64,000 bases of DNA, taken from contig JAUCBJ010006667.1 of the NCBI GenBank assembly GCA_032718475.1, forward strand, positions 3,912 to 67,911, read 5' to 3'. Numbering within the stretch: the first letter of the stretch is position 1; every line of letters begins with the position of its first letter. Positions 17,497 through 60,878 of this stretch are shown in pieces. A model generated the notes under the pieces. It worked only from the letters and a program-made list of their open reading frames with translations, did not search any database and had not been told where the DNA came from. Both the position numbers and the translations under genes were made by a program. The stretch comes from Nemertoderma westbladi. Its lineage: Eukaryota > Animalia > Xenacoelomorpha.

Positions 17497-17620
17497 AAGC
17501 ACCCATGTTAGGGTACCACCACCGGTACGGTGTACGGCGGTACCCCAGTACAGCAGTACCTGTTATTGTAACAGTTTTAGGCCTAACACAGTAAGAACTA
17601 GACTAAGGTAATAATATAAA

Positions 17621-32121: not shown

Positions 32122-32665
32122 TGTGACCGTAGCCCAGCCATCCCGGCCATAAGAACCATTATATGGGTAGGGGCTTCAATTTCCAATATTCCCTCATCTC
32201 TCTTTCGTCCCCATTTAACTACCCACAATACCAATAGTTCTACCATTTCGGCCGCTTCACCTATTACAGCATTGGCACCGGCCCTTACAGTAGGTGTAGC
32301 GTAGCCATGGTATTACTGTGTCATGATTGGGTGCTATTTATAGGTGTATATCATACCGCGCTCTGTGAGTGGCTGTTGTCTCCCATTCGCTAACGGTTCT
32401 ACTGCCAGAACCTATAAGGCAGGGCGTTTCTCAACCTCTGCATTATTCCTTCTGCAGTGTACCTGACAGCGTGCCATTGCTTCTACCGTAGTTTCTGCCT
32501 TTTCAGACATTCAACAACAGTCACTCACAGACCGGCCCATAAAACTCACTTGTGCATAACAACATTATTCTAAGATCTATTCAACTTTATTATCATGGGT
32601 TCGGGAAGGGCGGGAGCTACGCGTTATTAGCGGCTCACAGGTTCATCAGCCAGCAGTGGGGAATA
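32122..32665 (+). repeat. 5' LTR of element 1 (544 bp, TG...TA)
   Basis: Direct repeat of 42989-43529; about 6 substitutions and one 3-bp indel by eye. TATA-like cctataag at about 32411. Confidence 0.95.
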
Positions 32666-32981
32666 AAAGTAGAAGCATTGTCCGGATAGGGCTGCTAAAA
32701 ACTGCTTCTTCAACATCTCTAGGCACCCAGCTAGGTAAAAGTAAAAGGAGCGATCAACGACAGAACTGTAAGTGCGTACCGGTCCGGTCACCAGTAATTA
32801 CGGTAAAAAAAAAACGTTGTCGTTGTAGTAGGGTAGGCCTACGATCTGTTGCCTAGCCCTACGGCAGTACGCGGTCAGCAATTACAACAGCTTACAGCCA
32901 GCATACCGGTCACCGGTGCGGTACCCTGCCCAACGCCTCCGCGCTAAGTACCTACGCTAGCTACGCTGTCCCGCAGCGATA

Positions 32982-35934
32982 ATGAGTACCGGTATCCCAG
33001 GAGAAACCCGGCGGGGCACAGCCAGTACGGTAGGCCCCGAACATTCGTCCCACTTAGACGGGACTCCAACCGGCTCAGCAGACAGCCAGTTCAAGGGATG
33101 GTCAGACTCATCCCACGCGGATCAACCCGGCTCCCAGGGGGCCATTGGAGGAGACCCGCAACCCGAGGTATGTTCTGACTCGGCGGTTTTACCGGAGTCA
33201 GTCAATGTACCTGATACCAACCGAACATCCACGGTTCCAGGGCGCATCGGTTCAGCGGTGAACTCGCGCACTGGACCGGTACTGCCAACTACAACAGGGC
33301 AACACCCAGTTCGGCCGAGGACACCGAGCCCTGATGGGGGGAGCCCGCAGCATTCCGATTCAGACGACAGACGTGCTCCTGCGGGTGCCACCGCGGGGGC
33401 AGCGACGGTCGAGGACGCGGTCGTTCGATTGCAGCCGCGGGGAGCACGGAGCGATACTCGAACTGGATCACCCGTTAAACCCGCCCGCGCCCGACGCCTA
33501 ACGCGATCTACGATCGAGAAGGGGACCCTTCCTTCTAGGGATACAGGTGAGGTCGAGAAACTGGAGCGGAAATACAGACGCGCTAGGGACCGTATGGAGG
33601 ATGGGGTCAAGGCGGGTACGTTAAACTTCAACATTGACGAGGCCGTCGAGCAGGTAAACTTGTACATAGAGCACCTCAATAAATATCAGCAGGAGGTGGC
33701 AAGTGACCAAATAACGGACCATATAGCCAACTTACTTACTGTACTGTATATTACGCATAAACTGGTAGGTATATACAGGGTTGGTAAGGTTGTAGTAGGT
33801 GAAGCCGCGACAGCTGTCGCCAAAAATTGGGATAGTGTACCACTGGGGGGAGAGATGAGGGAGGCGGAAGCAGAGCTCCTACCCAGTGATTCAGTTTCCC
33901 AGGTTGAGTCCAATCGGGGGACTTTTATTTCGAGCCAAGTTCGCTCAAACTACATGTCGGTAGCTTCATCTAGGGGGGTAAGGGAGGAAGAACTACATGC
34001 CCAGTTCCTTATAGAACAACGGGAACTGGAGGGTGAACTCCTAGAACAGGAGTTAGAGAGGGAAGAGAAGGCTAGAAGGGTTAGGGCCCACAGGTTAGCG
34101 AAAAATAGGAAACAACAATTAGAGGCCCGACAGCAAAAACGGTTAGTTAGTCTATGAGCAGCCTCTGAGAATGGTAGTTCAGTGTCCCGCCCTACCCAGG
34201 TTAGTCAAAGTGTCTCAGTGCCGTGCGGTCTGGCGCAGGTTGCCGCAGCCCGCAAGCAAACAAATAATCGGGTTGAATTAAATAAACCCATAGAATTTAA
34301 TAATTTAAATCTATTAAATAAACAAACCCAACTCGTTGACATAGACCAGACAGCAGGCCGTCGGCTGACATACCTTGTACAGCGGCAAGCCGTTCAGACA
34401 TCGGCCAGGTTACCCGCAACACAGGGGTTAGTACAGGGAGTCTCTGAAGGAGACAGTATAAGGCTGATGAGCCGAGATACTGATAATTGTATTAATTTAA
34501 ATGGAAATTTAAATAACAATTTAACACCAAATATTGATTTATTGCAATATAATGCAAATTCTAATAAAAACGCAAATATAATTGCACCAATAATAATACA
34601 AAGTAATGTGGAGGCACCAGTCCTGTCTAATAACATAGACAGTGACTCACACCAACCCACACATAACACAGACGACATTGCAGTGCCGCCAAAGCGGCAG
34701 TAGGTTGTACTGTGGTAATCAAATCGCTTCACACGAAGAGTCGGATCGGGAGGAGCGATTGCGAGACTCGGGAGATCGCACGTCGGTTCGAGTCAGTAGC
34801 AAAGTGGAGGAAGTCTACTACGACGGATGTCCGGGGGCAAGAACTGGCCAACTTACGCAATCTGGCGAGTCTGAGCGGGCGACGAGGGCTCAGGAGGATC
34901 GCTCTTCGGATGAACTCGTCGATCCGTTATGTAGGCTAGGCCAGCCAGCTACTGTAGGCTATCAGTCAGTAGACCAGCAAGAACAAGCTACAGTAGTGCC
35001 GGACATAGATAAACAAACAACCCTAAACCCCAATGCGAGTGATTATAGACCGCCGAGAGTTCCAGAAGGGGGTCGACTTAATTTATCGGACGTTCGACAT
35101 GCAGACTCCACTGCGAATGTACCGGTACCGCGAGTACCCCTATGGAGGCCTAGGGATGATAATGTGTATTACAATAGTAATATAAGAGAATATTTACCAG
35201 TAACAGCAAGCCCTTCATACAACCCAACTTCATCAGGGACATACACCCAAAGGGGGTCTAATGAAACTATTCATAGCCCCGTAGGTCCACATTATGATAC
35301 TTTACCTAGGCTATCTTACCCCAGTAGGGAAACTGATAAACCTGCATATAATAATGTTGGGGGTAAGGACATGGCAAGGGGCCCAGGGGGCCTAGGAATG
35401 TATAGACCAAATATTGGTGAAGGGTCTTCCCATAGGGATGGTGTCCCATCAGGACCTGCCAGTGGCTCTATTGGACAGACTACTTCACTACCAACAATAC
35501 CAGAACATGTCAGCAGCACAGACCCTACAGGGGGAATGAGTGCAGTGGTGGATGCACTCAGGGTGCGTTTAGAATTGCCTCCCATCAAACCCTTTACATT
35601 TGATGTGACAAAGCCTGAAGAGTATGTACAATTCAGGAGCATGTTCAACGAGGAAGTCATGTCTAGGGGTCTAACTACAACTCGATGTCTAACTCATCTT
35701 CAGTCCTATGTAGAGGGAGAAGCTAGCGACATTGTTAGGCCATTTCTGGGCATGGAAGGAGGCTTCGCAGAGGCGTGGGCAGCCCTAGATAGTGAATATG
35801 GGCATCCTGCGCGTATTATTCGAAACACCATACGTACCTTAACTGCAAATACATCCTTGCAAAAGCCTAAAGAATTAAAGGCATTTGCTGCAAAGGTCAA
35901 AAAGGCTCTTATTGTGCTGCGCACATTGGGGTGA
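32982..35934 (+). pseudogene. Element 1 gag N-terminal region, interrupted
   Basis: ORFs 32982-34157 and 34182-34703 share a frame across a TGA. A frameshift leads into 34642-35934, which carries the Pao gag core (F....PEEY..F.SMF...LQSYVEGEA...L.SEYG.P). An in-frame TGA at 35932 precedes the pol ORF. Confidence 0.8.
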
Positions 35935-35961
35935 CCAGCCGAGCTTAGCTCCACGTCCAAT

Positions 35962-38900
35962 ATGACATCCATAGTGGAAACCTTACCAGTATGGATGCGC
36001 AGCCTATGGCGCAAGAAGGCATATGTCCTACGCGAGGAAAAGGACAGGGAACCAGATTTTGCAGACCTGTCCGCCTTCCTTACCTTCCAGGCAGAGATTA
36101 TGACAGACCCCATATATGGGGAAGATAACTTCAACATTCCTAAAACTGGAGGAAAATCTAAAGTACTTCCCGCAACCACAAATAGAGACAAAATGAATAG
36201 CCCTGCTTATCCACTGCCACGCAAAAATGCCACAGGTGTTTTTCATCTGGCAGAAAATGAAAGGTCCAGTAGGGATCCCGTGTCAAGATCGAAGTCACCC
36301 TCGGTGCCAGCAAAAAGGCACCAACCACCAGTGGCACCTCCGGAGGGCACTTCTCGAAATTCGACATATAAACAATCGGAGTGGTTTACTCCATTTACAC
36401 CTTACTGGGACATAGGAACCTTAGATTACAGCGACGAGGTGGACTGCCAGATCCATTTCAGAAACAAAGGTCACCCTACTAGAACTTGCAGGGTGTGGCA
36501 AGCACAAAGCCAACAGGACAAGTGGAATTACCACAAGCGTCATGGTACATGCAAGCATTGTGTGACCACAGGCCACTTTTCAACGAACTGTCCCTATGCG
36601 CCTGCAAAGTCTGGGAAATCTGCTGAATCCGGGTCTACAGGCGTGATAAACACTTTATCTCTCCAGGATCGATATTATGGAGAGACAACGTATCTTAAGA
36701 TACTTCCTGTTAGAGTGACAGGATCGAGGAAACGGTCACTGACAACCCTAGCACTAGTCGATAACGGTGCTGGAATCGACATCCAAGGTGAAGTCGTTCG
36801 GAAGCAGTTGCATATTGCAACACAGCCAGAGACCGTGCATATAAGCACTATTGCATTAAAGAACCAGGAGATAAACATGCCGGTTGGGGAATGTACAGTT
36901 AGTTCTATTATGCCAGGGCCTGAGTTCTCAATTAAGTGCCCAGCAGTACGTGTGATAGACGAGGTAAACGTTCCCGCCGAAAGAGCAACAACGGAGGAGA
37001 TAGCCCAGTACTCATACCTGGACGGCATCGACTTCTCTCTTCCGCCATTGGATCTTCCATATGTCACCATGGTGCTGGGGATGTGCTGTCTCCCGGTACA
37101 TGCAGAGCTGGAGATAGTTCAGGGTCCGGGTAGAAATCAGCCCCAGGCTGTACGAACACCCCTGGGTTGGGTATTACTTGGCAAGGTGGCTAATGTACCG
37201 TCTATATCAAACCCGACAGAGGCTGTTACTGCTAACCACATCATTAAATCAGTAAAACCGGGCCCAGCTAGACCAATCACATCCCATGAACTCACTTATA
37301 CCCCAACTGACACAGCTGGGATCTCAAGTGGCACTACGGTGGCACAAGACCTAGCAACCCTCTTCAACCTGGATAGCGAAGGGTTGTATGAACCGACGCT
37401 TGGCCAATCCCAGGAGGATGTTAGAGCAACCAAGGCACTAACAAATTCAACCATCTTTCGAGATGGCCACTACACAGCAAGAATGCTGTGGAAAGACCCG
37501 AATGGGCAGTTACCTAACAATGAATCCATGGCAGTAGAGCGCCTACGCAAATTCAAGGTAACGCTCAACCGAGATGAGCGAAAGAAACAGTTTGTTCATC
37601 GAACCATTCAGAAGTATCTAGATCGAGGGTGGGCAGTCCAGCTAGCGAACCAGGAACCCAATACTACTCGAACCTATTACTTACCCCTTCATGTCGCCGT
37701 AGATGTGAAGAAGAACAATAAACTCCGGTTGGTTAACGACGCTGCAGCCAAATACCATGGGAAGTCGCTGAACGACTATCTCCATGAGGGGCCCAACATT
37801 TATAATACAGGAGCAGATGTGCTCATGAGGTTCAGAGAGGGAACCAAGGCCTTCACATGCGATGTGGAGGCCATGTTCCACCAAGTTCGGGTCTATCAGG
37901 AGGACAGCGATAGCCTCCGATTCCTCTGGCACGACAGCGATAACCCGAACGAGGTGCCAAAGAAATTCAAGATGTTGGTCCACATCTTTGGCGCCAAGTG
38001 TTCGCCGTTCATCACCACAGATAAACTACGGCAAACCACCTTTGACAAGAATGTTCTCATCGAATTCTCACAAGAGGTAATCCGCATGATTAGGGAGAAC
38101 TTCTATGTAGACGATGGTCTGCAATCAGCCAACTCGACTGAACAAATCCTCAGCCTAGTGAAGGAAGCGGTAGAGATTCTACGGCGGGGAGGATTCTGGC
38201 TGAGGCAGTTCAAGTCGAATTGTCCCGAATTTGACGCCGAGATGGCCCCAGAGGATAAATCCACAGGCCTTCTCAAACAAAGTGAGAACATGGCTCCTAT
38301 AAGCCTACAACCTCTAGCGGAGGGTAGGAGCCAGCCAGACGCAGCCTCAGGGGAAGTCAACCGGATATTGACGGAGGCTTCGGCAGAGCCTGAGGCCAGA
38401 GTGCTTGGGATTTCATGGGATAGGATCAACGATAATCTCGTGTATATCTTCAACGAGACAGCTATGACAAAGCATACATTACGGAATTACCTATCATACA
38501 TCGCGAGGATGTATGACCCCATAGGGTTAGCATCACCTAACCTGGTGGTGGGAAGGCATATCCTTCGCGAAGCATATCTGGGGAAGTTCAGATGGGATGA
38601 GGAACTCCCAGAACAGCTCAAAATCAAGTGGAGAGCTTGGCTCGAAGTTCTCAAGGATAATAGAAGGCTAAGTATACCGCGACCGTACTTCTCGGATGGG
38701 AATATGTCCGAAGTGGTCCTGCATGCCTTCTCAGACGCATCGACTAAGGGATATGGGGCCGTGATATACGTGGTTCAAGGAGGAGAGAACAACCTGCAAC
38801 CACGTCTGATCTTCAGTAAGGCCAGAACTGCTCCACTAAAACTAGTGACAATCCCGCGATTAGAGCTGATGGCTGCACTTCTGGCCACACGCGCAGCTCA

Positions 38901-40758
38901 ACAAGTACAAAAAGGTCTTAAGAATGAGCGAGAAGTAGAGTATTGGACGGATTCCACTGTTGTGCTTCGCTACATTCAAAATGAATCACGAAGATTCAAA
39001 GTTTTCGTTGCTCATAGAGTGGACGAGATACGTGCCACGACCAACCTAAATAAGTGGCACTTCTGCCCGACAGACCAGAACCCAGCCGACCTAGTGTCCC
39101 GGGGAACCCTCAAAGTCCCATCTAAGGAGTTGGAGACGCTCTGGCAGCATGGACCCTCTTTTCTCCATGATGTGGGGAAGTGGCCGGAATTCTCGGACAA
39201 AGGTCAATCTCCCAAGTTAGACCCAGAAGATCCAGAGGTCAAGGTGGAGACCGTGTGCTTCGCTACTACTAGTACACTGATGACACCAACAGATAAACTC
39301 TTGAGTCATAGCTCTTCATGGTATAAGACTGTGAAGCTGGCAGCCAACTTCAGGGCCTGGTTCGCCTATATCAGACAAGGGCGTACTGGAGACAAGCCCA
39401 TTATAGACTGGAAGGGGGCCAAGGTGGCTGTCATTAAGTATGTCCAGCGACTGGCATACACACAGGAGATAGGACGGTTAGCATCTGGGAAACCCATTCC
39501 GATGGATAGCCTAATCAAATCGTTGTCACCAACACTAAACCAGGAAGGAGTCCTGGTCATGGACTCACGAGTACGACGGGCAGGATGTCAGATAATTCCA
39601 AGCAAGCCCGTAATACTACCGCGGCAGAGACCAGTGACGCAGCAGATCATCAACGATAGTCACCAGCGGGTGATGCATGGGGGTACTGACGCAACTCTCG
39701 CTTACGTGAGACGCACGTACTGGATTCCAGCGGTGCGCCGATCAATCAAACAGACTATAAACTCTTGTTCTACCTGCCGTTTAGTGCGGAAAGTACGAGT
39801 AACCCAAGTGATGGCGCCGCTTCCACCCGAACGAACAATAGAGTATGAACCACCATTTACCTATACAGGAACTGATATGTTCGGGCCGATAGTGGTAAAG
39901 GTTTATCGACAGCAGCGGAAATCGTACGGCATCATTTTCGTTTGTTACAATACCCGAGCCATCGCCTTGGAACTTGCAGTCGACGCCTCGGCCAGCGCTT
40001 TCATCAACGCCCTTCGACGCTTCATCAATCGATGTGGAAAGATCAAGCGTATGGCTTCCGATAATGGGGGAAATTTCATCGGTGCAGAGGCGGAGCTCAA
40101 AGAAGCCACGTGTACCTTCAATGCCAAGGAAGTGGCTCTCGCAATGCGCCGGGAAGGTGTGGACTGGGTACACACTACGCCCTATGCACCACACACCGCC
40201 GGAGTTTGGGAACGTCTCATTGGAAGTTCCAAACGCCTGATGCTGGCACTACTCAGAGGGCACATCGTCACGGAGGACGTGCTCCGCACTGTCTTTGCAG
40301 AGGGCGAACAAATTATGAACAGCAGACCACTCTGCGCGCTCAATGACGACCCAATGTCACTCGAGGTTCTCACACCCAACCATCTACTGTTGCGACGACC
40401 AGCTCAGATGATGCGACGGGGGGAGTGGGACCCTAATGAACTCTATTCACGCAAGTCCTGGCGGGTGGTACAAGCTCTCGCGGACGAGTATCAACGTCGG
40501 TGGGTTCAAGAATACATACCCACTCTCCACAAGCGACGAAAATGGAGGACGGAGCAGAGGGACCTCAAACCGGGCGACCTCATACTGGTTACCGATGATA
40601 CCCTACTCAAGAAAGACTGGTGCATGGCCAGGATCGTGCGCTGCTACCCAGGCGCAGACGGCCGAGTGCGTTCCGTCGAGGTCAGCCTTGGCAGCGGAGC
40701 TAAGCGCACCTACAAGCGACCAATAGGCAACTGCTGCCTATTGGAATGCGCGCCCTAA
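35962..40758 (+). CDS. BEL/Pao gag C-terminus plus pol: Zn knuckles, aspartic protease, RT, RNase H, integrase
   Basis: CKHC....H....C, ALVDNGA, DVEAMFHQV, FYVDDGL, HAFSDAS, TIPRLEL, WTDS, NPADLVSRG, H...H/C..C, DMFGP, SDNG, GVWERL and KRPI...CLLE. Confidence 0.96.
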   Translation: MTSIVETLPVWMRSLWRKKAYVLREEKDREPDFADLSAFLTFQAEIMTDPIYGEDNFNIPKTGGKSKVLPATTNRDKMNSPAYPLPRKNATGVFHLAENERSSRDPVSRSKSPSVPAKRHQPPVAPPEGTSRNSTYKQSEWFTPFTPYWDIGTLDYSDEVDCQIHFRNKGHPTRTCRVWQAQSQQDKWNYHKRHGTCKHCVTTGHFSTNCPYAPAKSGKSAESGSTGVINTLSLQDRYYGETTYLKILPVRVTGSRKRSLTTLALVDNGAGIDIQGEVVRKQLHIATQPETVHISTIALKNQEINMPVGECTVSSIMPGPEFSIKCPAVRVIDEVNVPAERATTEEIAQYSYLDGIDFSLPPLDLPYVTMVLGMCCLPVHAELEIVQGPGRNQPQAVRTPLGWVLLGKVANVPSISNPTEAVTANHIIKSVKPGPARPITSHELTYTPTDTAGISSGTTVAQDLATLFNLDSEGLYEPTLGQSQEDVRATKALTNSTIFRDGHYTARMLWKDPNGQLPNNESMAVERLRKFKVTLNRDERKKQFVHRTIQKYLDRGWAVQLANQEPNTTRTYYLPLHVAVDVKKNNKLRLVNDAAAKYHGKSLNDYLHEGPNIYNTGADVLMRFREGTKAFTCDVEAMFHQVRVYQEDSDSLRFLWHDSDNPNEVPKKFKMLVHIFGAKCSPFITTDKLRQTTFDKNVLIEFSQEVIRMIRENFYVDDGLQSANSTEQILSLVKEAVEILRRGGFWLRQFKSNCPEFDAEMAPEDKSTGLLKQSENMAPISLQPLAEGRSQPDAASGEVNRILTEASAEPEARVLGISWDRINDNLVYIFNETAMTKHTLRNYLSYIARMYDPIGLASPNLVVGRHILREAYLGKFRWDEELPEQLKIKWRAWLEVLKDNRRLSIPRPYFSDGNMSEVVLHAFSDASTKGYGAVIYVVQGGENNLQPRLIFSKARTAPLKLVTIPRLELMAALLATRAAQQVQKGLKNEREVEYWTDSTVVLRYIQNESRRFKVFVAHRVDEIRATTNLNKWHFCPTDQNPADLVSRGTLKVPSKELETLWQHGPSFLHDVGKWPEFSDKGQSPKLDPEDPEVKVETVCFATTSTLMTPTDKLLSHSSSWYKTVKLAANFRAWFAYIRQGRTGDKPIIDWKGAKVAVIKYVQRLAYTQEIGRLASGKPIPMDSLIKSLSPTLNQEGVLVMDSRVRRAGCQIIPSKPVILPRQRPVTQQIINDSHQRVMHGGTDATLAYVRRTYWIPAVRRSIKQTINSCSTCRLVRKVRVTQVMAPLPPERTIEYEPPFTYTGTDMFGPIVVKVYRQQRKSYGIIFVCYNTRAIALELAVDASASAFINALRRFINRCGKIKRMASDNGGNFIGAEAELKEATCTFNAKEVALAMRREGVDWVHTTPYAPHTAGVWERLIGSSKRLMLALLRGHIVTEDVLRTVFAEGEQIMNSRPLCALNDDPMSLEVLTPNHLLLRRPAQMMRRGEWDPNELYSRKSWRVVQALADEYQRRWVQEYIPTLHKRRKWRTEQRDLKPGDLILVTDDTLLKKDWCMARIVRCYPGADGRVRSVEVSLGSGAKRTYKRPIGNCCLLECAP

Positions 40759-42988: not shown

Positions 42989-43529
42989 TGTGACCGTAGC
43001 CCAGCCATCCCGGCCATAAGAACCATTATATGGGTAGGGGCTTCAATTTCAAATATTCCCTCATCTCTCTTTCCCCATTTAACTACCCACAATACCAATA
43101 GTTCTACCATTTCGGCCGCTTCACCTATTACAGCATTGCCACCGGCCCTTACAGTAGGTGTAGCGTAGCCATGGTATTACTGTGTCATGATCGGGTGCTA
43201 TTTATAGGTGTATATCATACCGCGCTCTGTGAGTGGCTGTTGTCTCCCATTCGCTAACGGTTCTACCGCCAGAACCTATAAGGCAGGGCGTTTCTCAACC
43301 TCTGCATTATTCCTTCTGCAGTGTACCTGACAGCGTGCCATTGCTTCTACCGTAGTTTCTGCCTTTTCAGACATTCAACATCAGTCACTCACAGACCGGC
43401 CCATAAAACTCACTTATGCATAACAACATTATTCTAAGATCTATTCAACTTTATTATCATGGGTTCGGGAAGGGCGGGAGCTACGCGTTATTAGCGGCTC
43501 ACAGGTTCATCAGCCAGCAGTGGGGAATA
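42989..43529 (+). repeat. 3' LTR of element 1 (541 bp)
   Basis: Direct repeat of the 5' LTR, preceded by the PPT and followed by the TSD. Confidence 0.95.
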
Positions 43530-44409: not shown

Positions 44410-45511
44410 TTATGTTTCTGACTCCTGAGTGACTAATCCCGTCCTATCATTAGTATCACATCCTATCTTGACATTGCTACGACTGTAAGCGTGTTTAAGA
44501 ATATCCCAAAGGCATACACTGGAATGAAACCGGAAGTATATCGCCATGGGTGTAACAGTGTGAAGTATCATGTGCCAGGTGTTTGCACCATAGAAACTGA
44601 CTTGAACTGTGTTTGTATCGAATTTCGTTTCAAAAATACTATCCACCCACAAAGCGATATTAGAAAGAAGGGCGAATACAACTAAACCTTTACTCCAAGT
44701 CTCGCCATTCGCAATTGGTCTTCGATGTAATCCATCAAGTATAACAGCTGCTTGAACTGTGACCTCTATGAAGTGGAATGTGTATGTAGAGGCGGATATT
44801 CCTTTGTCATAAATTGATGATTCATCATCAAATATGGCGGCTACCAAATTGAAGGCGCTTTCAAAATACATACCGATCAGCGAGATTACTATAAGCGCGT
44901 TGTCCAAATAAGTTTTTTCGTTTTTCTCAAATTGATGTTGAAGTTTAAGAATGATCCCAATCGTAATCATAGACAGTGTCAGGGCTATCATCATCCCCAT
45001 AATGTAGGCATAATACCAAACCAGAGCCTTGCTTGAAATGCTGTCTTCTCTGCCGGGTTTGGATATAACAGTGGCCACCATAGCTAAAACAACAGCACAG
45101 ATTACCAGAACAATAGCTCCGAGAATCAGACCAATAGTCATGGAAATAGCGCCGACACTACTCGAAGTAACGCTGACGGTGGTGTCACTATCAGGAACAG
45201 CTGACGTGATATCCGCCTTTGAGGTCTGCTCCTTCAATGTTGAATCTTTCGACGTTGAACTAACGTCTTCATTGGCAGATTTTATGTTTTTGAACATGAA
45301 AAAGGAAATAGTTGCCCCTATCAAACAATATTCGATACGACACGGAAGTAAAAACGGTCTACTCTTATAGGGAACTTTGAGGAGATCGATGGTTGAGTTT
45401 GGTATTTCGCAACTGTTATTTTGGTGTTCGTAGGTTTGATTGTTGTCGAGGTTTCCTCCTTGAAACTCCATTGTTATCGGTAGATTTCCCACTAAATCAA
45501 CCATTGTAATG
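44410..45511 (-). CDS. OTOP: Otopetrin proton channel paralog A, exon 2
   Basis: Motifs LLPCRIEYCLI, FALLSNIALW, FYG..TW..I.....PMAIYFRFHSSVCL. Acceptor is a poly-C tract plus tcgcAG ending at 45512. Confidence 0.88.
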
Positions 45512-45719
45512 CTGCGAGGGGGGGGGGGGGGGGGGGGTCGGTTATTTATAAAGTGATATAAAAAAAAGTATAATTATACAATAATTATATAATGTGTATA
45601 ACGTGTAATAATGTGTTAATAATAATGTATAACGTGTATAATTATACAGATACCGGATTAAAAAATTAATTCACATACTAAATACATATTCGGCGTACAG
45701 CTGCACTGTTAAATTTTAC

Positions 45720-46327
45720 GTAGGTCCCGGCAGTCTGTCGACACTCAACACAACACCTTTGTGCTCCCACAATGGCTACAATAAGCTCCATGGTCCCACA
45801 ACCATTATGGAACCCATGTGACAGACACTTTACAGGATCCCTGGTGCGATTTAATATAATTCTGTTAGCTTTGCAGCAATCGATAGATTCCACGAAAAGT
45901 TCCATAGGTTGTTAGGTTGCCCTTCTTTGGGACCAACTTATTTGTTTTCATTTCTCGAGGGACTATCTTTGTCCTATACATGTCCACAATAATGGGGTGA
46001 ATGAGCTCCAAACACTCAGGAATAGTAAAGACCTCAGAGGCCACGCCATCTACTCCACTGGCACGATTGGTCTTGATGCTCCTTGCTGCAGTCTTGATTT
46101 CAGCAAAGGAGATTTCACCAATGGGGATATCTGTGAGCAGAGAGAACAGACTCAGATACACGATGTTCCTCAAAGTTATCAGGCAATGCCCTGTCATTGT
46201 TTAGAAGCTTCTCAAAGTGGGCTTTCCAACCTTTGAGGCGCTCAGCTGGAGATTCAGCCTTAACCTTGGTACAGTAGTTGGTTGGCTTTTCCTCCCGGTG
46301 AGCAGGTTTATTGATTGCCATGCCTGG
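45720..46327 (-). mobile_element. RTE-like LINE remnant, RT-proximal part (downstream of the LTR insertion)
   Basis: Frameshifted W..HFEKLLN, EI..A...IK..RASGVDGV..EVF, PKKGNL....FRGI and NRIILNR.R. Confidence 0.85.
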
Positions 46328-47545
46328 TGTAAAAGCTTTTGCGGAATTGCCCGGTTATTTTCCCCGTAAAGTACTCTGTAGTTGGTTTAGCAGGCATAAA
46401 AGGCCGTGTCATTGCTGTACCGGTGTTTTTAGGGGACATAAAAGCTATTTCTTCTGTATGTGTACTTTAGAGGACATAATTAGCAATTCTATGACGCAAC
46501 GCCCTAGATCCTCTTGAAACAGTGTCGTTACTATGACGACAGCTAACGGCTGAGCTTTACATGTGTAGCTTGCCCGGAGCCTTGCCTTGGTTCTTTGTTC
46601 TGCTCAGCTCAAAATGACGACATCTATCAGCTGTGTCCACGTGGAGCTCTTTGCCATTCGACCAATCAGAGATTCCCTCTTTGTGTAAAAGCTGTACAGC
46701 AGAATTACAGGGTTCAGTACTGACGTTTCCCCCACGCCTAGAACACCGTCCGGGGAATGTTTTCTGACATTAGAGCGTCTTTAATTATAAGATCATCAAA
46801 CGGTTATCACGGTTTTGCACCTCGGCATCTGATTAAGCACCCTGACGTAAACTGCTTTTCGCCGCATTATTTACTGCTATTTACTGTGTTGTTAATTGTA
46901 TCGTTCGTTTACAAATTATTATTGGGAAGAATATTGATAACGATCCGAAAACCCAATCTTCTTGATACACTAAGGTTAGAGAGACCGGTTACATATAACA
47001 ATTTGCGACATACATTATAGTGGTTTGTAGTGAGTTCAATGCTACTTAATAGGCCCTACAAATGTCGGTTGTTATTCTCTTTATATATGATTAAAATCAG
47101 TGAATGTCGGCAATTCAGTGTGCAGTTGTGTGCAATAGTCTGTGTGCTTGACCGAGTAACAAAGCATTTCCTAAAGAATGCACTTTGGTGATCTATAAGA
47201 CATACTGTTGTGTATAGTGTAAGTCATAGCTCTGTTTAAATAGATAGAGCGCCACGTCCTAAAGGAACTGCTAATATTTCCCTAAAGTGAATAATATTCG
47301 TCAGAGATTATATATTAACGATCAATCGAATAGTACGGTAGGCCTGCACCGCAATCAAATTAAAGCATCCAAATCCAGTCTCCCGGGTATATCCAACGGG
47401 TGAATGGTCGCGCACAGACTGGCTTTGGCTAATGTTAGAATTATTATAGGTGTTCAATACTTGTCATAGGCTGGAGTAGATTTATAACCTAGAAGACATA
47501 TAGATTTGGCAGGTTAAACTGCCAAAGGTCTTAAAAGCGCGAACA
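46328..47545 (+). repeat. 5' LTR of element 2
   Basis: About 6 substitutions versus the 3' LTR by eye; CCAAT at about 46662. Confidence 0.96.
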
Positions 47546-47907
47546 ATAACCGTTTGTAAAATTCTTGATTGCAGTGTAGGCAATAAATACAGTTTAATAT
47601 TGTTCTGGTAAGAACAATAACCGTTTGCAGGATCTTGATTGCGGCGTAAGCGATCAAGACTAAATTACCGGTCTACCGGTAACCAGTAGGCCTGACTGCC
47701 TGATCACCCGGACCGGTACTTACAACAGTACAGGTATATCAGTACTATTTCGATTGTGATATTGTATACTGGTAGGCTGTTTAAGAGATTAGGGACGGTA
47801 CACCCCTTGTTTCTTATGGAGCTTACTTATTTCTGTCAGTTTTATTTATTTGTAGGCTAGTATTGAGCAGAAGGCGTGTAAGCCTGCTCAGTCTGTACAG
47901 ACAATTT

Positions 47908-48478
47908 GTAGGCTGGATTGTTGTCTGGCTGTTATTAGGTCTGAAGGGATTGCTGTGTGTGTAGAGTGTCTGTCCGATAAAGTGCCAGTTAGTAAGTTGG
48001 GGCATCTTGAGTCGTAAGGTCAACCCCCTCCTAAAGAATAAGTCGTACTACCGTGTTAGAACGCATACTAACTAACCATTTTGGAATCTGCATATACCGT
48101 AGTTTATTTAGGCTTGATAGTAGTCTGCCAGCGTTTTAGCCTGTGTTTGTTTGTGTGGTCTGTTCAGGTACCGTAATAGTTATTACTCAGATATTTTGTA
48201 GGCCGGATTGTTGTCTGGCTATTGTTGGGTCTGGAGAGATTGCTGCGTGTGTAGAGTCTGTCCGATAAAGTGCCAGTTAGTAAGTTGGGGCATCTTGAGT
48301 TGTAAGGTCAACCCCCTCCTAAAGAATAAGTCGTACTACCGTGTTAGAACGCATACTAACTAACCATTTTGGAATCTGCACATACTGTAGTTTATTTAGG
48401 CTTGATAGTAGTCTGCCAGCGTTTGGTTTGTATTTTGTTTGAGTATTCTGTACGGGTAGCGTAATATTTATTATTCAG
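47908..48478 (+). repeat. Tandem duplication of about 290 bp in the element 2 leader
   Basis: gtaggc.ggattgttgtctggct... begins at about 47908 and about 48198, with a near-identical core. Confidence 0.88.
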
Positions 48479-49797
48479 AGTTTATGCGATTATTCGCAAC
48501 ATTCATGTCCCCAAGTTTATTCCTACAGTAATTGTGCTTGTTATACATACTGTTATAGTTAAATTAACCCCGGTACTACACGGGCTGCTTGGCGTAGGTA
48601 AAGACCGGAGATTTTGTGCTTTGGTCACTCCAGCAGATGCCGTGGTTCTTTTAGCTGTTCAAGTATTTTAACTACTGATTATTTGTTGTACAAGTACTTG
48701 TACCTAATTTAGGGTTTAGTGTACAGTGCTTTCCGAAGGTAATTAGTGTGTAGGCAGTATATTTGTGTTGTAAAGTGGTTAATAGGCACGTTGGTTCTGG
48801 TAGACCGCGGTAATTAACTTCTAGGTAGGGACACTCCGTGATACATAACGTAGTACCTATAGCGATACGGCTATAGGTCGTCAGACGGTGGTATTTTTTC
48901 TATCTGGACAATGCAGTATATTGACTACTGCTTTATTATTCTCAAATACCATAGTATCCTGTCTGTTGTAATAACCAGAAGTTCTAACCCTTTGTTAGAC
49001 TGGTTTGTAGTTTCCCTGTAAAATTACCCTAAAATTTCGTACGTAATATTTTTGTTGTGTTTAGTTAGAGAATTAATCTCACCCGTATCGTAAGTAATTT
49101 GTAGATAAGTAACTTAGGAAGTAGAATTATCTGTTTTAGTGTCCAATAAGTAGCACTTCACTGAGAGCGCACAGCTTCTGTGTAGTGATTATTTCCCAGA
49201 AATAGTAACATCTATTTCAATATTGTAACAAAACCCCTCATACGGGTACACATAAATCCACTAAATCTATTAATAAAATAGTAGGCCTGTTATACAACAC
49301 TTAGGTCTTAATATCAGTTGGACTGCTGCTCAAATAACGGTAATAGAGTGAGTAAAGTAACCAAGTAACCCCTAACATTCAGAAATTCAATTATTTTAAA
49401 ATAATTGACATACCGGTATTTACAATAGGCTTATTATATTTATTTCTATAAATTTAGGCTGAAATCATACCGGTATTCTGTAATTAATTCTAGTCTGTAA
49501 TAATTATACTTATATATAATATAAGTGTAGGCTGTATACCGGTATTCACGATAGGCCTATTATATATTTATATATATTTGTGCTAAAATTATATACCGGT
49601 ATTCTGTGATAAATCTAGTCTGAAATAATACTTATATATACTATAAGCATACCGGTATTCTAGTATATTTTATATATATACCACGTTACACTGAGTAGCA
49701 GTATCGGTAATTAATTATTAGGCTAACAGTGATACTGAATTACTAGACTTACTTTAACTGTATTTATAGCCGTAGGCATTCAACTGTGTAAACAAAC

Positions 49798-52089
49798 ATG
49801 TCAGACGCAACCCAATCACTGTCAGATAGTCTCTTAGAAAGTGTTAGAATGAGTATTAGACTTAGACAGCGTATTAAAAGGATCTGTGACCAAGATCAAA
49901 GTATAGAACATCCTAGATCCAAGTCTAAGTCACCTATTATTGTAAGAAAGGCCATCCCTACAGTAGTAGTGTCAGACCCTAGGCTAGTAGAACAGCGTAG
50001 GTCTATCATAGGCACTCGGGCCCAAGTCAAGCGGGATCAAGAAGCAGCTATCAAACAGCAGCAACCTCCTAACCAAGAACCTAGTTCTCAACGGCCCGAT
50101 AGCTCCAGTAGTTCGGATACTGTTGAGCGGACGCCCGAACGCGGAGCGAAGATGGCGGATACGGTTTATGATGAGCGGCCAACCTATGAAGAATCAACCG
50201 ACGCCACTTCTTCTCAAGTGGAAAGCGAAGTGGAAAGCGAAGTAGAAAGCGAATTAACAGCAGCAGAGAAGCCGCGAACTAGAGACGCCATTGACATCTA
50301 TCTGTCAGACTATCAGCGATTCCTAGGAGACAAAGAGTTGAGGAGACGACTGTCTGGACTTCGCCCTAATAGTGAAGGAACCAAGCTTGTGTTGGACTCA
50401 ATCGATGCGGAAATGTTAGCTGCAAACCAAGCTAAATTTGATGAAAAACTCCGCCTCGCTAGAGTCCAGGAAGAACAAGTAAAGAAAAGACGGATAGAGG
50501 ACCGAAAGGCAGCAGCAGTAGCAGAGGCAAGGGCAGTGGCAGAAGCAGAACGGAGAGCGTCTGAGGAGACTACCCAACTGGAGTTGGAAAATCTGCAAGA
50601 GACGCAAGACAACATAAATAAACAATTAACTGCTAGTCAAATGCAGATGATGAGTCGATCTACTCCCAAACGCCAAGAATACACATCATCGGAAGAAGGC
50701 GAGACCACCGATCCTGAAGGCGGAGGAAATAGATCTCGTCTAAGCAGGCGTAGAAAAACATCTCATTGTCACAAATTGCCTGATTTGCCCCCAGCGGTTA
50801 GAAGACAACTAGCTAGCACAGACTTAGGTAGTTCAGAACCCACAGACCAAATTATTAAGGTCAAAAGACTCCCTACGATAGTCGATGAGCCTGAAATAAT
50901 TAGGCCTGTCGTTCCCGAAGCCACTCCTGTGCTAGAGACCCCTGTACTTCCAGAGCTTAACTCTAAATTCCCTTTACACAGTACTACACTGCCTGTACCC
51001 GGTAGAACAGTCCATGAGAAAATCCCTGTCCTGGACGCTGAGAGAGAAATCAAGGATTTGTCTCCCGTCAGCCCGCGTCAGCCCGCTACAATGTTGGCGA
51101 CTCCCGCTTCGGCGGTCGAGTGGGTAGAGGAGGGACGGCGGGGGATGAATCTCCTGCTCGGACAGATGCAGGAGACTGTCCACCAACTCAAGGGAACAGT
51201 AAGGGAAAGTATGTTAGAATTGCAAGAAGTGCAGCAAAGTATCGCGCTAGAACGCGACAAATTAGTCAATATACAAAAGGGTATACCAATACCCCCTGTA
51301 ACATTGTGTCAACCTGTTAGGTCTGAAGTATTACATGCGCAAGGTGTGGAGCCTACACGCATCTATACTGCTAGTGAAGTAGAAACTCCTATAGCAAACC
51401 CTATTAAGGGTGATTATAAACCTGTTGTTGATGATATTCCCTATAGACCTGATAATAATCCGGGAAATTTATATACCGATAATTCGATATTAAATAATAC
51501 GATGACCCAAGAAAGCTTTACGCGTCAGATGGCTAGAACAGAAGCCCGCCAAGCGGTCAAAGTGGGAGAAATCGTCAAATTCAATGGAGATGAGATGAAA
51601 TGGTTACCTTTCAATGAATATTACAAAGATAGCATACAGAACTCTGTACTATCTAACGGAGAGAAACTTAGATTTCTCATCAAGTGCTTGGAAGGACCTC
51701 CCAAGTTAATGGCGTTAAGGTTTATTGGACATCCAGATGGATTAAGACAAGTTTGGGATACATTAAACATCAGGTATGGTAACAAGGATAACATAGCTAA
51801 GTATTTGTATGCAAAATTAGTAGCCCCCCGAAAGTTCCTTAGTAGCGGGATTATAGAGTTTTCCGATGAGATTCAGGAGATCTGTAGACAATTGGATTGG
51901 TTAGGTAAGTCTCATGAATATCAGAGTTCCATGGTTATTGGAGCCGTAGTCTCTACTTTACCAAAGGGTGGAGTATGTATACGCTGGGACAAGAAGGTGT
52001 TGTATATGAATGAGCAGCAACGACGAGGCCCTACCATGGCTGAGGGCATGGCTGACCATGACAAAAGGGTATACCAATACCCCCTGTAA
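49798..52089 (+). CDS. Element 2 gag, N-terminal part, ending in a frameshift caused by an internal duplication
   Basis: Coiled-coil and low-complexity N-terminus followed by the Pao gag core KFNGD..KW..F...Y...I....LSNGEKLRFL...LEG.P.....F......W..L..RYG. Confidence 0.88.
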   Translation: MSDATQSLSDSLLESVRMSIRLRQRIKRICDQDQSIEHPRSKSKSPIIVRKAIPTVVVSDPRLVEQRRSIIGTRAQVKRDQEAAIKQQQPPNQEPSSQRPDSSSSSDTVERTPERGAKMADTVYDERPTYEESTDATSSQVESEVESEVESELTAAEKPRTRDAIDIYLSDYQRFLGDKELRRRLSGLRPNSEGTKLVLDSIDAEMLAANQAKFDEKLRLARVQEEQVKKRRIEDRKAAAVAEARAVAEAERRASEETTQLELENLQETQDNINKQLTASQMQMMSRSTPKRQEYTSSEEGETTDPEGGGNRSRLSRRRKTSHCHKLPDLPPAVRRQLASTDLGSSEPTDQIIKVKRLPTIVDEPEIIRPVVPEATPVLETPVLPELNSKFPLHSTTLPVPGRTVHEKIPVLDAEREIKDLSPVSPRQPATMLATPASAVEWVEEGRRGMNLLLGQMQETVHQLKGTVRESMLELQEVQQSIALERDKLVNIQKGIPIPPVTLCQPVRSEVLHAQGVEPTRIYTASEVETPIANPIKGDYKPVVDDIPYRPDNNPGNLYTDNSILNNTMTQESFTRQMARTEARQAVKVGEIVKFNGDEMKWLPFNEYYKDSIQNSVLSNGEKLRFLIKCLEGPPKLMALRFIGHPDGLRQVWDTLNIRYGNKDNIAKYLYAKLVAPRKFLSSGIIEFSDEIQEICRQLDWLGKSHEYQSSMVIGAVVSTLPKGGVCIRWDKKVLYMNEQQRRGPTMAEGMADHDKRVYQYPL

Positions 52090-52831
52090 CATTGTGTCAA
52101 CCTGTTAGGTCTGAAGTATTACATGCGCAAGGTGTGGAGCCTACACGCATCTATACTGCTAGTGAAGTAGAAACTCCTATAGCAAACCCTATTAAGGGTG
52201 ATTATAAACCTGTTGTTGATGATATTCCCTATAGACCTGATAATAATCCGGGAAATTTATATACCGATAATTCGATATTAAATAATACGATGACCCAAGA
52301 AAGCTTTACGCGTCAGATGGCTAGAACAGAAGCCCGCCAAGCGGTCAAAGTGGGAGAAATCGTCAAATTCAATGGAGATGAGATGAAATGGTTACCTTTC
52401 AATGAATATTACAAAGATAGCATACAGAACTCTGTACTATCTAACGGAGAGAAACTTAGATTCCTCATCAAGTGCTTGGAAGGACCTCCCAAGTTAATGG
52501 CGTTAAGGTTTATTGGACATCCAGATGGATTAAGACAAGTTTGGGATACATTAAACATCAGGTATGGTAACAAGGATAACATAGCTAAGTATTTGTATGC
52601 AAAATTAGTAGCCCCCCGAAAGTTCCTTAGTAGCGGGATTATAGAGTTTTCCGATGAGATTCAGGAGATCTGTAGACAATTGGATTGGTTAGGTAAGTCT
52701 CATGAATATCAGAGTTCCATGGTTATTGGAGCCGTAGTCTCTACTTTACCAAAGGGTGGAGTATGTATACGCTGGGACAAGAAGGTGTTGTATATGAATG
52801 AGCAGCAACGACGAGGCCCTACCATGGCTGA
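51273..52831 (+). repeat. 771-bp tandem duplication within gag with a 17-nt filler
   Basis: Copies at 51273-52043 and 52061-52831; filler gggcatggctgaccatg at 52044-52060. Confidence 0.92.
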
Positions 52832-54632
52832 TCTCATGTCCTTCTTAGATAGTGAAGTAAAATTACAACTCATAAAGCAGTCCAGAGAGAAAACATCGGA
52901 AAATAAGGTAAGTGAGAAACCCGTTTCTAGGAGAAGGGTAACACCAGTGTGTTATACTGACGACGGCGAAAGCCAAGCTTCTCAAGAAGAGGACAGCGGG
53001 AAAGACACAGCAAAATCTTACTATGACAACAAGACCTATAAAGACGTAAGTAAATATAAGTCTCGAACCAGTGACAGGAGAGAACAGGTAACAACAACTC
53101 CTCCTACGTCTCCTAAGAGAATTCACGGAAGAAAGCCCGAAGAAAGAACGAGAGTGCATAACGTTGCCCAAGGTAAAGTGAGTAACATCAAACCAAAATG
53201 TGCGCTGTGCGACAGGCCCCACCGTTTGAGTGTGTGTGCTGAATTCCTAAAGAAATCCCTGGTAGACAGACGTGAAGTCATGTGGGATAAGCGGTTATGC
53301 TATAATTGCCTCAGACAAGGACACCAACGGCGAACCTGTTACTCCGACGTAAAGTGTGCAAAGTGCGGTGCGAAACATCACATCTTGTTACACAGTGAAT
53401 TCGAACGAAACAACCCGAGTCAGGTAAGTGCGCCCGAACTACATGTCCAATTCAGTGATGAAAATGACACTGATCAAGAATCTGAGATGGAAGAATTCTA
53501 TACGGACGAATTCTCCGACGCCAACGAATCCTGTTACCTAATAAATACCGCAGTGTATCGAGCACTTACGTATGAAAAGGACACCGACAATGAGTTCCCC
53601 CCAACTACCTTTGACAGACAACCATCTTGGAAACCTCCAACTTCCAACGTAGGAATCAGAGAATTTCCTGTAGTACAGGTAAGAGTTCACGGTCCTAACA
53701 AAAGTTACATAGTGAACGCCCTCCTTGACTCCGGCAGCACAGGAACATTCATCGATCAAGAACTAGCCGAAGACATCTTTGCTGGACAACCCAAATTCCG
53801 AACTAAGTTGAATATGTCAGGAATTATGCAGGTTTGGAAATCTACCATAACGGCAGATTACTATGTAGGTGCGTTGTCCACCCCCCAGGATAAATTAGGA
53901 GAACAAAGTATAAGGTCAGTAAAAATGGTGGCTATAAAGAACTTCGCTACTACCCAAGTAGAACCTTATAACTGGGACGAGGACGAGAGCATCCAGCAGC
54001 TTAAGATACCTCGATTCCACACAGATTATCCTGGAGTGCAAATACTCATCGGCCAAAACGCGCATGAGGCGCTAGAGACATTGGAGAAACGGCCTGCTCA
54101 ACCACAGCCACTACAAACCTATGCGGTAAGAACTAGAGTAGGTTGGTACTTCACTGGCCCTTCCCGTAGAACTCTCAAAGAGAGATTACCTCAAGAACAG
54201 GTATACCAAGTAAAGGAATGGGAAGTGGAGAGCAGTGAGGTGGACGACCCAACTGAGGGAACACCATACTCCTCAGATAATGACGATATTAACTCCACTA
54301 TAGATCAATGGAGACATTGCCTTGGGACGATTAATCCAGCCGACATTGCTTCCAGAGGAGCAACTCCTCAAGAACTGATAGATACTCCAGGCTGGTTAGG
54401 TGGATCCGACTTCTTAAGTAAAGAAGAAGAAGAATGGCCTCCTCATCTTACCACGGTGGAGATTAGACAGGCCAAGGGAGTGGAGAAAGTAACACAACAA
54501 CTCAATCGCCCAGCTGGTCGTCTATGTTTACTGGAAAGAGACCGAAAACTGTCCGGAAACTATGGAAGGCAAGATACTCTTCCTACGACCACTTCCCTAA
54601 TCCGACAAATATCTAGGGACTCCATAACGTAA
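52092..54632 (+). CDS. Element 2 gag core, three Zn knuckles and protease, fused to RNase H-end and integrase-end stubs
   Basis: CALC...H....C, CYNC....H....C, CAKC...HH.LLH, ALLDSGS and RT.VGW, then directly WRHC.G..NPADIASRG...W..G..FL....EWP and RP..RLCLLE. Confidence 0.9.
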   Translation: MCQPVRSEVLHAQGVEPTRIYTASEVETPIANPIKGDYKPVVDDIPYRPDNNPGNLYTDNSILNNTMTQESFTRQMARTEARQAVKVGEIVKFNGDEMKWLPFNEYYKDSIQNSVLSNGEKLRFLIKCLEGPPKLMALRFIGHPDGLRQVWDTLNIRYGNKDNIAKYLYAKLVAPRKFLSSGIIEFSDEIQEICRQLDWLGKSHEYQSSMVIGAVVSTLPKGGVCIRWDKKVLYMNEQQRRGPTMADLMSFLDSEVKLQLIKQSREKTSENKVSEKPVSRRRVTPVCYTDDGESQASQEEDSGKDTAKSYYDNKTYKDVSKYKSRTSDRREQVTTTPPTSPKRIHGRKPEERTRVHNVAQGKVSNIKPKCALCDRPHRLSVCAEFLKKSLVDRREVMWDKRLCYNCLRQGHQRRTCYSDVKCAKCGAKHHILLHSEFERNNPSQVSAPELHVQFSDENDTDQESEMEEFYTDEFSDANESCYLINTAVYRALTYEKDTDNEFPPTTFDRQPSWKPPTSNVGIREFPVVQVRVHGPNKSYIVNALLDSGSTGTFIDQELAEDIFAGQPKFRTKLNMSGIMQVWKSTITADYYVGALSTPQDKLGEQSIRSVKMVAIKNFATTQVEPYNWDEDESIQQLKIPRFHTDYPGVQILIGQNAHEALETLEKRPAQPQPLQTYAVRTRVGWYFTGPSRRTLKERLPQEQVYQVKEWEVESSEVDDPTEGTPYSSDNDDINSTIDQWRHCLGTINPADIASRGATPQELIDTPGWLGGSDFLSKEEEEWPPHLTTVEIRQAKGVEKVTQQLNRPAGRLCLLERDRKLSGNYGRQDTLPTTTSLIRQISRDSIT

Positions 54633-57600: not shown

Positions 57601-57645
57601 TGATTTTTATATTTTATAGATTAAAATCCCATTTTCTGGGAGCGG

Positions 57646-58863
57646 TGTAAAAGCTTTTGCGGAATTGCCCGGTTATTTTCCCCGTAAAGTACTCTGTAGT
57701 TGGTTTAGCAGGCATAAAAGGCCGTGTCATTGCTGTACCGGTGTTTTTAGGGGACATAAAAGCTATTTCTTCTGTATGTGTACTTTAGAGGACATAATTA
57801 GCAATTCTATGACGCAACGCCCTAGATCCTCTTGAAACAGTATCGTTACTATGACGACAGCTAATGGCTGAGCTTTACATGTGTAGCTTGCCCAGAGCCT
57901 TGCCTTGGTTCTTTGTTCTGCTCAGCTCAAAATGACGACATCTATCAGCTGTGTCCACGTGGAGCTCTTTGCCATTCGACCAATCAGAGATTCCCTCTTT
58001 GTGTAAAAGCTGTACAGCAGAATTACAGGGTTCAGTACTGACGTTTCCCCCACGCCTAGAACACCGGCCGGGGAATGTTTTCTGACATTAGAGCGTCTTT
58101 AATTATAAGATCATCAAACGGTTATCACGGTTTTGCACCTCGGCATCTGATTAAGCACCCTGACGTAAACTGCTTTTCGCCGCATTATTTACTGCTATTT
58201 ACTGTGTTGTTAATTGTATCGTTCGTTTACAAATTATTATTGGGAAGAATATTGATAACGATCCGAAAACCCAATCTTCTTGATACACTAAGGTTAGAGA
58301 GACCGGTTACATATAACAATTTGCGACATACATTATAGTGGTTTGTAGTGAGTTCAATGCTACTTAATAGGCCCTACAAATGTCGGTTGTTATTCTCTTT
58401 ATATATGATTAAAATCAGTGAATGTCGGCAATTCAGTGTGCAGTTGTGTGCAATAGTCTGTGTGCTTGACCGAGTAACAAAGCATTTCCTAAAGAATGCA
58501 CTTTGGTGATCTATAAGACATACTGTTGTGTATAGTGTAAGTCATAGCTCTGTTTAAATAGATAGAGCGCCACGTCCTAAAGGAACTGCTAATATTTCCC
58601 TAAAGTGAATAATATTCGTCAGAGATTATATATTAACGATCAATCGAATAGTACGGTAGGCCTGCACCGCAATCAAATTAAAGCATCCAAATCCAGTCTC
58701 CCGGGTATATCCAGCGGGTGAATGGTCGCGCACAGACTGGCTTTGGCTAATGTTAGAATTATTATAGGTGTTCAATACTTGTCATAGGCTGGAGTAGATT
58801 TATAACCTAGAAGACATATAGATTTGGCGGGTTAAACTGCCAAAGGTCTTAAAAGCGCGAACA
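57646..58863 (+). repeat. 3' LTR of element 2
   Basis: Direct repeat of 46328-47545. Confidence 0.96.
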
Positions 58864-60050: not shown

Positions 60051-60153
60051 CTGACCTGGACAAACTATGGTACAAACTATGCTTCTACTCAAATAGTAAT
60101 AATAATCAATATAATAATATTCACTCGTGATATCAACTCCCCAATTAATTAAC

Positions 60154-60878
60154 CTGTATAATAATGATGGATTGATGACCATGGGTGTCAGATTACTACT
60201 CGGTGTGATGAGGTATGACACCTGTGCCTCCTCAATACTCGTCTTCACCCACATAAATAAGTTAACTAGAACGCACTGAGCGAAAAACAGCCTGGAGAAT
60301 GATCGATGTTTGTATAAACACAGGTCAGAGAACGGAATGATAACAAGAATTTGACCAATCATAAAGAGAGCCCCTATAACTATAGAAACTGGTAGTTGGG
60401 CAGGAACATTACAATGCCTGAGGGCAGCTGTCCACACGACTAGATCTATCCCATCTTGTATCAAACTCGCAACAAGGAATATAAACACTCCCGTTTTGAT
60501 ATATATATTTCCGTTGTGATGGTCTTTAGGGGCGTCAGATTGCGCAACGCAAAAGCGTAGAATGTTGACCAGAGCCAGTAATCCGAGGGAATACACAAAT
60601 ATGGAGAAGTTTTCAACATGATCGTCGCGTACTTGACGTTTGATCTGATTGGTTATTGTCAGGACAACGCCTATAACGAGAAAGCAGATGACATACAAAC
60701 CAGAGAACCACACAGATGCGTTAGCACCCTGTAACAAATGCAAGACATATTGTGGTCTGTTTCCTTTATGCTTCTCCTTATTATTGCTTCTAACTCCATT
60801 GGTGTCGTTGTGGTGATCGTCAACTATATCAATTGATCCATAACCATCGCGGTTATGTACAATAATTGACTCCGCCAT
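60154..60878 (-). CDS. OTOP: Otopetrin paralog A, exon 1
   Basis: SGLY....LV.G, GNIYIKTGVFIF, F..GQ...I and VNLFMWVKT.IEE motifs. Donor cag/GTTAAT at 60153 gives phase 2, matching the exon 2 acceptor; the joined CDS is 1827 nt (608 aa). Confidence 0.8.

Follow-up and report, generated by a model that had tools for sequence, protein, structure and literature searches.

The window, that is, the whole stretch of 64,000 nucleotides that was analysed, contains several protein-coding genes and two LTR retrotransposons of the BEL/Pao type, called element 1 and element 2. Two WD40 proteins, POLA2 and RPL11 are each encoded by a single uninterrupted ORF (726-2363, 17615-19351, 20338-21960 and 27239-27856), and the best POLA2 matches are to animals at 30-42% identity, with ∼34% to the best full-length matches. 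The single-ORF structure of these conserved genes, together with the divergent POLA2, points to an intron-poor, divergent animal as the host. Element 2 is flanked by minus-strand ORFs of the otopetrin family (44410-45573, 59997-60890 and 63234-63998), the first and last of which are 77% identical over 515 nt. The 5' flank adjoining element 2 (46200-46327) consists of high-copy repeat DNA in each of the four runs compared. The features of element 2 are given here.

46323-46327 and 58864-58868: TSD CCTGG, 5 bp
46328..47545, plus strand: 5' LTR, 1218 nt, TG...CA, found by self-BLAST, ends and TSD
46660..46668, plus strand: match to the CCAAT-box consensus from a motif scan, 137 nt upstream of the segment, a weak promoter hint of putative function
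46797..46807, plus strand: candidate self-primer segment, ending in AT
47505..47526, plus strand: 8-bp hairpin near the U5 end
47546..47556, plus strand: PBS 1, directly after the LTR
47564..47581, plus strand: PBS-flanking leader, predicted to pair to LTR 47342-47358 in two 8-bp helices
47617..47627, plus strand: PBS 2, an 11-mer identical to PBS 1 in the second 71-nt leader unit
49792..54632, plus strand: gag-protease region with two DUF1759 domains, zinc knuckles, a protease motif and a short RNase H tail
57630..57645, plus strand: polypurine-tract position, purine-rich in the last 8 nt only
57646..58863, plus strand: 3' LTR, found by self-BLAST, with a second copy of the segment at 58115-58125

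The LTR boundary of element 2 is real; the two LTR copies, which carry 6 differences over 1218 nt, begin to diverge directly past ...GAACA, and a TSD flanks the element. In the U5 hairpin, the 3' LTR copy has an A>G change at the site matching 47511, which retains a G-U pair. DUF1759 has been doubled via a 771-bp tandem duplication (51273-52043 and 52061-52831), and ∼3 kb of AT-rich DNA with a few ORFs of 90-165 aa lies between the coding region and the 3' LTR (54633-57645). Direct LTRs with TG...CA ends, a short TSD and BEL/Pao-type Gag/Pol domains place element 2 in BEL/Pao, and against other BEL loci it gives weak gag-protease matches and an RNase H tail that is 40-47% identical. RT and integrase were not found in it by Pfam, tblastn or ORF listing, leaving it short of the complete PR-RT-RH-IN set. 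Because its LTRs are nearly identical and RT and integrase were not found, element 2 is a young, non-autonomous BEL/Pao derivative, which, having no RT, cannot self-prime using its own enzymes. Element 1 belongs to an unrelated BEL/Pao family and has the following features.

32122..32665, plus strand: 5' LTR, TG...TA, TSD GATCA
32478..32486, plus strand: candidate self-primer segment, ending in AC
32669..32677, plus strand: PBS, 3 nt (three As) after the LTR, no TGG, a 9-nt complement of 32478-32486
34639..40758, plus strand: gag-pol with DUF1759, Peptidase_A17, integrase H2C2 and DUF5641 (Pfam)
42989-43529: 3' LTR, 535 of 541 aligned letters identical to the 5' LTR

The gag-pol of element 1 is broken by an in-frame stop at 35932-35934, behind which RT and integrase lie, and the similarity of its Pol-side ORF to element 2 is low, at 24% over 188 residues. 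Several traits are shared with the ICTV description of Belpaoviridae (PMC8742986), namely the 1.2 kb LTR of element 2, which reaches the upper limit of 0.2-1.2 kb, the DUF1759 in gag and the polypurine-tract position. The Pao peptidase family and, in element 1, the PR-RT-RH-IN order are further points of likeness.

The first-pass annotation of this DNA had claimed that the 11 nt past the 5' LTR of element 2, ATAACCGTTTG (47546-47556), are the exact reverse complement of the LTR-internal segment 46797-46807, that TCAT precedes this segment, and that the PBS lacks TGG. All three statements were confirmed by the sequence, and no TGG occurs within the first 8 nt after the LTR, the interval by which a tRNA-type PBS was judged in all 15 elements considered in this work. 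The orientation suits priming, as the 3' base of the segment pairs with the base adjoining the LTR end. When the LTR was shuffled by dinucleotides, a complement of at least 11 nt arose in 6 of 3000 shuffles, with the PBS start set at 0-4 nt after the LTR; for element 1, 45 of 3000 LTR shuffles reached an equal complement. Each PBS fits its own LTR better than that of the other element (9 vs 6 nt for element 1, 11 vs 7 nt for element 2), and the two PBSs differ. The self-complement is real and not a matter of chance. Chance, or a template switch that happened once in a defective copy, would be in keeping with the deleted and internally duplicated state of element 2 and with the hypervariable stretch just 3' of its PBS, but this explanation is extremely unlikely in view of the shuffle rate of 0.002, of a predicted partner change in two runs of different studies, and of comparable self-complements in element 1 and 13 further families.

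That partner change was found within the element 2 family. Of seven sequencing runs, none recorded as RNA, six contain part of the stretch, and four of these were compared (X1, X3, X4 and X5, all contigs). Position 46802 is G in element 2 and T in most other family contigs, the depth of T being 6240/7855 in X1 (4 contigs), 9569/11341 in X3 (8 contigs) and 199/199 in X4 (2 contigs). Since 46802 pairs with 47551, G>T there predicts C>A at 47551, and this prediction was made before the PBS-side comparison. At 47551, A was present at 7699/9198 in X1 (23 contigs), at 4420/7199 in X3 (10 contigs) and in 1 contig of X5, with X4 having no cover at this position and X5 none over 46524-46847. Among the substitutions listed, C>A at 47551 is the only one between 47542 and 47552, and in the element 2 copy both LTRs carry G and both PBS units carry C. 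The swap counts as one event and is unphased, coming from short contigs and pooled subfamilies with the two sites 750 nt apart, and X1 may be the source sample of the window. Many contigs have variants or deletions at PBS positions 47553, 47555 and 47556, and wide variation also marks the ten bases that follow. Other subfamilies may therefore retain no more than 7-8 bp of the 11-bp duplex, unless their segments carry changes as well; on the segment side, the comparison covered 40 of 372 difference rows.

With T at 46802, the six letters 46801-46806 equal what we take to be the anticodon loop of tRNA-Asn, which was counted in favour of a reading by which the primer is an internal tRNA fragment, a half-tRNA of the kind used by copia, Osser and Bianca, and the match to the LTR is a coincidence. 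Half-tRNA priming does exist, according to the available part of PMC6317226, but the tRNA-Asn match is just 6 nt long and is broken in the recently mobile element 2 copy, and a separate tRNA fragment, itself matching the family's own LTR or LTR splice junction, would be needed in each of the 15 families, which makes this reading very unlikely. ARAGORN found no tRNA genes in the window or in the 77 metagenome loci described below, and Rfam gave 0 matches at E≤1 on 46300-58900, so that a tRNA-like gene encoded by the element itself was not seen. The nematode BEL/Pao element Cer7 reportedly encodes its own tRNA-like primer, which would be a different mechanism.

Distant BEL/Pao families were collected from metagenomes using an alignment of element 1 and 36 relatives as the query. 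From at least 600 pattern matches, at least 546 of them relatives, the best 80 were kept and gave 77 loci in 56 families, a sample biased to relatives of aquatic-animal elements and holding no insect or nematode references; in viral contigs, none of 27 pattern matches was a relative. In RT-RNase H, element 1 shares ∼35% identity with these families, and it sits on a long branch (2.7-2.9) outside all 56 in a quick tree built without labelled clade references, and the self-complement therefore spans a deep divergence. A flanking direct repeat was present in 34 of the 77 loci, and the LTR end was defined by both copies in 14 loci, which represent 13 families. All 13 families have no TGG and a self-complement of 10-15 nt. 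This complement is contiguous in four (L025, L055, L069 and L071), and in the other nine (L004, L012, L018, L022, L027, L039, L050, L059 and L073) the PBS complements a predicted exon-exon junction over 11-15 nt. Splice junctions were tested because most of the short complements started immediately downstream of a pyrimidine tract and AG. The predicted LTR introns of the nine families are of the GT-AG type, 72-186 nt long, with GTAAG or GTACG donors. A segment that exists only across a predicted splice junction in many relatives points to RNA, and not DNA, as the partner of the PBS.

The strict splice rule was fixed after a first, loose junction test, and some steps were done by hand: L035 was dropped as a member of the same family as L039, L038 was replaced by its sister L050, the end of L059 was redefined and that of L012 shifted by one base, both after sequence inspection, and the L071 end is uncertain. 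In the cross-family control, 9 nt were reached in 10 of 210 pairs and 11 nt in 2 of 210, both of which join L012 and L050, sister families in the tree. At other leader positions, 10 nt were reached in 5 of 960 cases, one of them PBS 2. For loci with an undefined LTR end, a loose scan yielded noise and end artefacts and was replaced by a fixed-rule scan, a partly independent check in which 12 loci were tried and L074 was dropped for want of a polypurine tract. The 11 further loci gave at least 11 nt in five, 9-10 nt in three and no site in three, compared with cross pairs at 11 nt in 0/110 and at 9-10 nt in 19/110 under a null limited to the first 650 nt and for that reason slightly lenient. 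Junction-type matches similar to those of the nine families occur in L009, L010, L054, L001 and L068. For elements 1 and 2 themselves a splice-junction primer was rejected, with loose spliced matches of 7 and 10 nt falling within the null (24/64 and 9/64) and the contiguous match being best under the strict rule. The spliced and contiguous labels do not cluster significantly on the quick tree (64 and 55 of 500 shuffles were as low).

The first-pass annotation had proposed that this BEL/Pao lineage self-primes, and had named covariation between the PBS and the segment as a check. The check came out favourably within the element 2 family, in element 1 and in 13/13 readable distant families, and these three lines of evidence support the proposal.

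Several properties are common to the 15 segments, those of elements 1 and 2 and of the 13 families. All of them end in AC or AT, for which the background is 0.12, the segment is followed by C in 11 of 15, and the gap between the PBS and the LTR end is 0-4 nt in 15 of 15. A long second helix after the segment is found in two (element 1 and L018), and a TATA box ∼30 nt upstream of the segment in one (L004). These data bear on another explanation, by which the pairing is a selected leader RNA structure (for packaging, dimerisation or a translation switch) and an unrecognised host RNA primes at or near the site. A compensatory change shows selection or copying and not priming itself, and both the further long-range leader-LTR helices that are predicted and a pairing that can be extended 5' of 46797 would suit such a structure. 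However, the duplex lies 0-4 nt from the LTR end and ends in AC or AT without exception, and the PBSs differ between families, which have no host-primer site in common. We consider a leader structure of this kind unlikely.

Predicted folding was examined for both elements. In element 1 the duplex is part of the minimum-energy fold in 3 of 4 windows and is lost if the RNA starts at 32440. A helix of 17-18 bp (32487-32504 with 32604-32621) is predicted to start at the base after the segment, so that the duplex would stack on it, and a third predicted helix of 10 bp, between the 3' flank of the PBS (32689-32698) and U5 (32627-32636), would cross the central duplex. The three predicted helices, one of them crossing, recall the Tf1 pretzel as presented in the available text of PMC10085805. 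In element 2, which is without the long second helix after the segment, the predicted duplex depends on the folding window and PBS 1 is favoured in the shortest of three. The fold of 46795-47570 gives PBS 1 a predicted pairing of ∼1.0, and the folds of 46795-47610 and 46795-47700 give 0, with forcing costs of 2.8 and 2.3 kcal/mol; in the longest window the segment is predicted to be taken by PBS 2 instead of PBS 1. The pairing can be extended 5' of 46797 by 46788-46794 with the flank of PBS 2 (-20.3 vs -12.7 kcal/mol), so the RNA may start upstream of 46794-46797, the start expected in the first-pass annotation, and the primer need not begin at the cap.

The duplicated leader of element 2 (47540-47681) consists of 71-nt units that each open with the LTR-end-like GAACA followed by a PBS, and both carry the rarer C despite diverged flanks. 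Counted by eye on the printed alignment, 16 of 16 columns are identical over GAACA and the PBS, and 35 of 55 elsewhere. The C at PBS 2 is unaccounted for by copying of a primer at PBS 1, and it counts against that mechanism. Two further features of element 2 count against self-priming: 738 nt of LTR lie downstream of its segment, compared with 62-203 nt in the other 14 elements, and TATAAG (46786-46791) stands only 11 nt upstream of the segment, so that transcription would begin past the segment if this were a true TATA box.

The length of this loop, and the sensitivity of the fold to the choice of window, would also fit a further explanation, that the primer is the element's own RNA from the 3' LTR copy of the segment, or a second RNA in trans, and not the 5' end in cis; the segment is indeed present in both LTRs (58115-58125 being the second copy). 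Against it, AATAAA or ATTAAA does not stand just upstream of the element 2 segment (the sites are at 47090 and 47359), neither motif occurs anywhere in the element 1 LTR, and in nine families the segment ends 6-7 nt past a predicted splice acceptor, which would be an improbable place for a poly(A) site. We give this explanation little credence.

Taken together, the sequence data suggest that element 2 RNA probably folds its own LTR segment onto the PBS and primes the minus strand in cis without a tRNA, as in Tf1. The transcript would carry the LTR segment near its 5' end, and the segment would fold onto the PBS to form the duplex. The RNase H of a helper element, with enzymes supplied in trans, would then cut just after the final AT of the segment, and minus-strand DNA would be extended from the new 3' end of the cut RNA, beginning at the LTR edge. 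During synthesis of the plus strand the primer would be copied back and the PBS rewritten, and since the primer is copied into it, the PBS would by itself follow any change in the segment. Junction-type relatives would retain their intron, since the unspliced 3' LTR would serve as template for the DNA upstream of the cut. On balance, we lean towards the broader view that a large, old part of Belpaoviridae uses no tRNA and takes its primers from its own RNA, with a shared AC/AT cut rule as at the Tf1 site. The ready-made primers of elements 1 and 2 and the primers spliced from LTR introns would then be two states of one system, in which splicing would gate reverse transcription.

Self-priming has been demonstrated for Tf1 and proposed for Tj1 and the Tf1/sushi group (PMC4600332 and PMC10085805, in the parts available). 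The available text of PMC11042837 states that about half of Tf1 cDNA carries a PBS copied from the primer. As in Tf1 and Tf2 of Schizosaccharomyces pombe, Tj1, Tosmo1-3 and the Tf1/sushi group (Ty3/gypsy, Metaviridae), the PBS described here directly follows the 5' LTR and complements a segment of the element's own LTR, and the complementarity is kept through change, both between families and, unphased, within one. In contrast to that group, the Ty3/gypsy-type Pol is absent here, and Pfam gives Pao-type families only. The Tf1 primer is the mRNA 5' end and its cleavage has been demonstrated, whereas in elements 1 and 2 both are putative. Further differences from Tf1 are the 0-4 nt gap to the LTR, the need of 9 of 13 relatives to remove an intron before the segment forms, and, in element 2, a 738-nt loop without a long second helix. 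ATAAC forms the first five PBS letters of both element 2 and Tf1 (as given in the available part of PMC11042837), which may be convergence or chance. By analogy, the elements resemble Tf1-type self-priming in a different superfamily, with variants of their own.

In lineages beyond the Tf1 group or on its margin, self-priming has been predicted from PBS-LTR complementarity, as here, for Tcn1 chromoviruses and for the TAR lineage of plant Ty1/copia (Houba, Osr-1); these belong to other superfamilies and hosts, and splice-junction primers are not mentioned in the available text (PMC6317226). The fungal copia elements of the GalEa type likewise have no tRNA PBS, yet the available part of PMC5445492 describes a conserved hairpin and no LTR complement for them, whereas the complement is present here and is family-specific. 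For Belpaoviridae, the ICTV describes replication as poorly understood and the PBS as 18 nt complementary to the 3' end of host tRNA-Arg or tRNA-Gly (PMC8742986), in contrast to TGG after the LTR in 0 of the 15 elements here. The first-pass annotation had taken self-priming to be undescribed for this family, and the titles and abstracts covered by a literature search agree with it, showing none (subscription papers, Repbase notes and supplements lay outside the search). By term search of the text available, the BEL/Pao surveys PMC3118150 and PMC6238403 contain no mention of PBS or tRNA, and the survey PMC554778 mentions only PCR primers. In the parts available, self-priming in PMC5443660 and PMC5445492 concerns Tf1, and PMC8220671 contains nothing on BEL priming.

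Among the LTR retrotransposons of animals, Belpaoviridae form the second large group, and the tRNA-primed definition of the ICTV needs revision if self-priming holds for many members. Self-priming would in that case be a trait acquired or retained in all three LTR superfamilies, and silencing by tRNA fragments directed at the PBS would presumably fail to reach such elements. Their number would be underestimated by programs that detect LTR elements through a tRNA PBS. Given exact ends for the primer, the AC/AT rule and a natural G-C vs T-A pair, self-priming can be tested directly.

Among the 15 elements, LTRs ending in TA instead of CA in both copies were seen in element 1, L059 and L069. Elsewhere in the window, long tandem arrays with periods of 27 nt and 48 nt occur at 2344-4300 and 5453-7760, and pairs of inverted repeats resembling non-autonomous DNA transposons at 14224-17471, 24804-25708 and 28288-29215.
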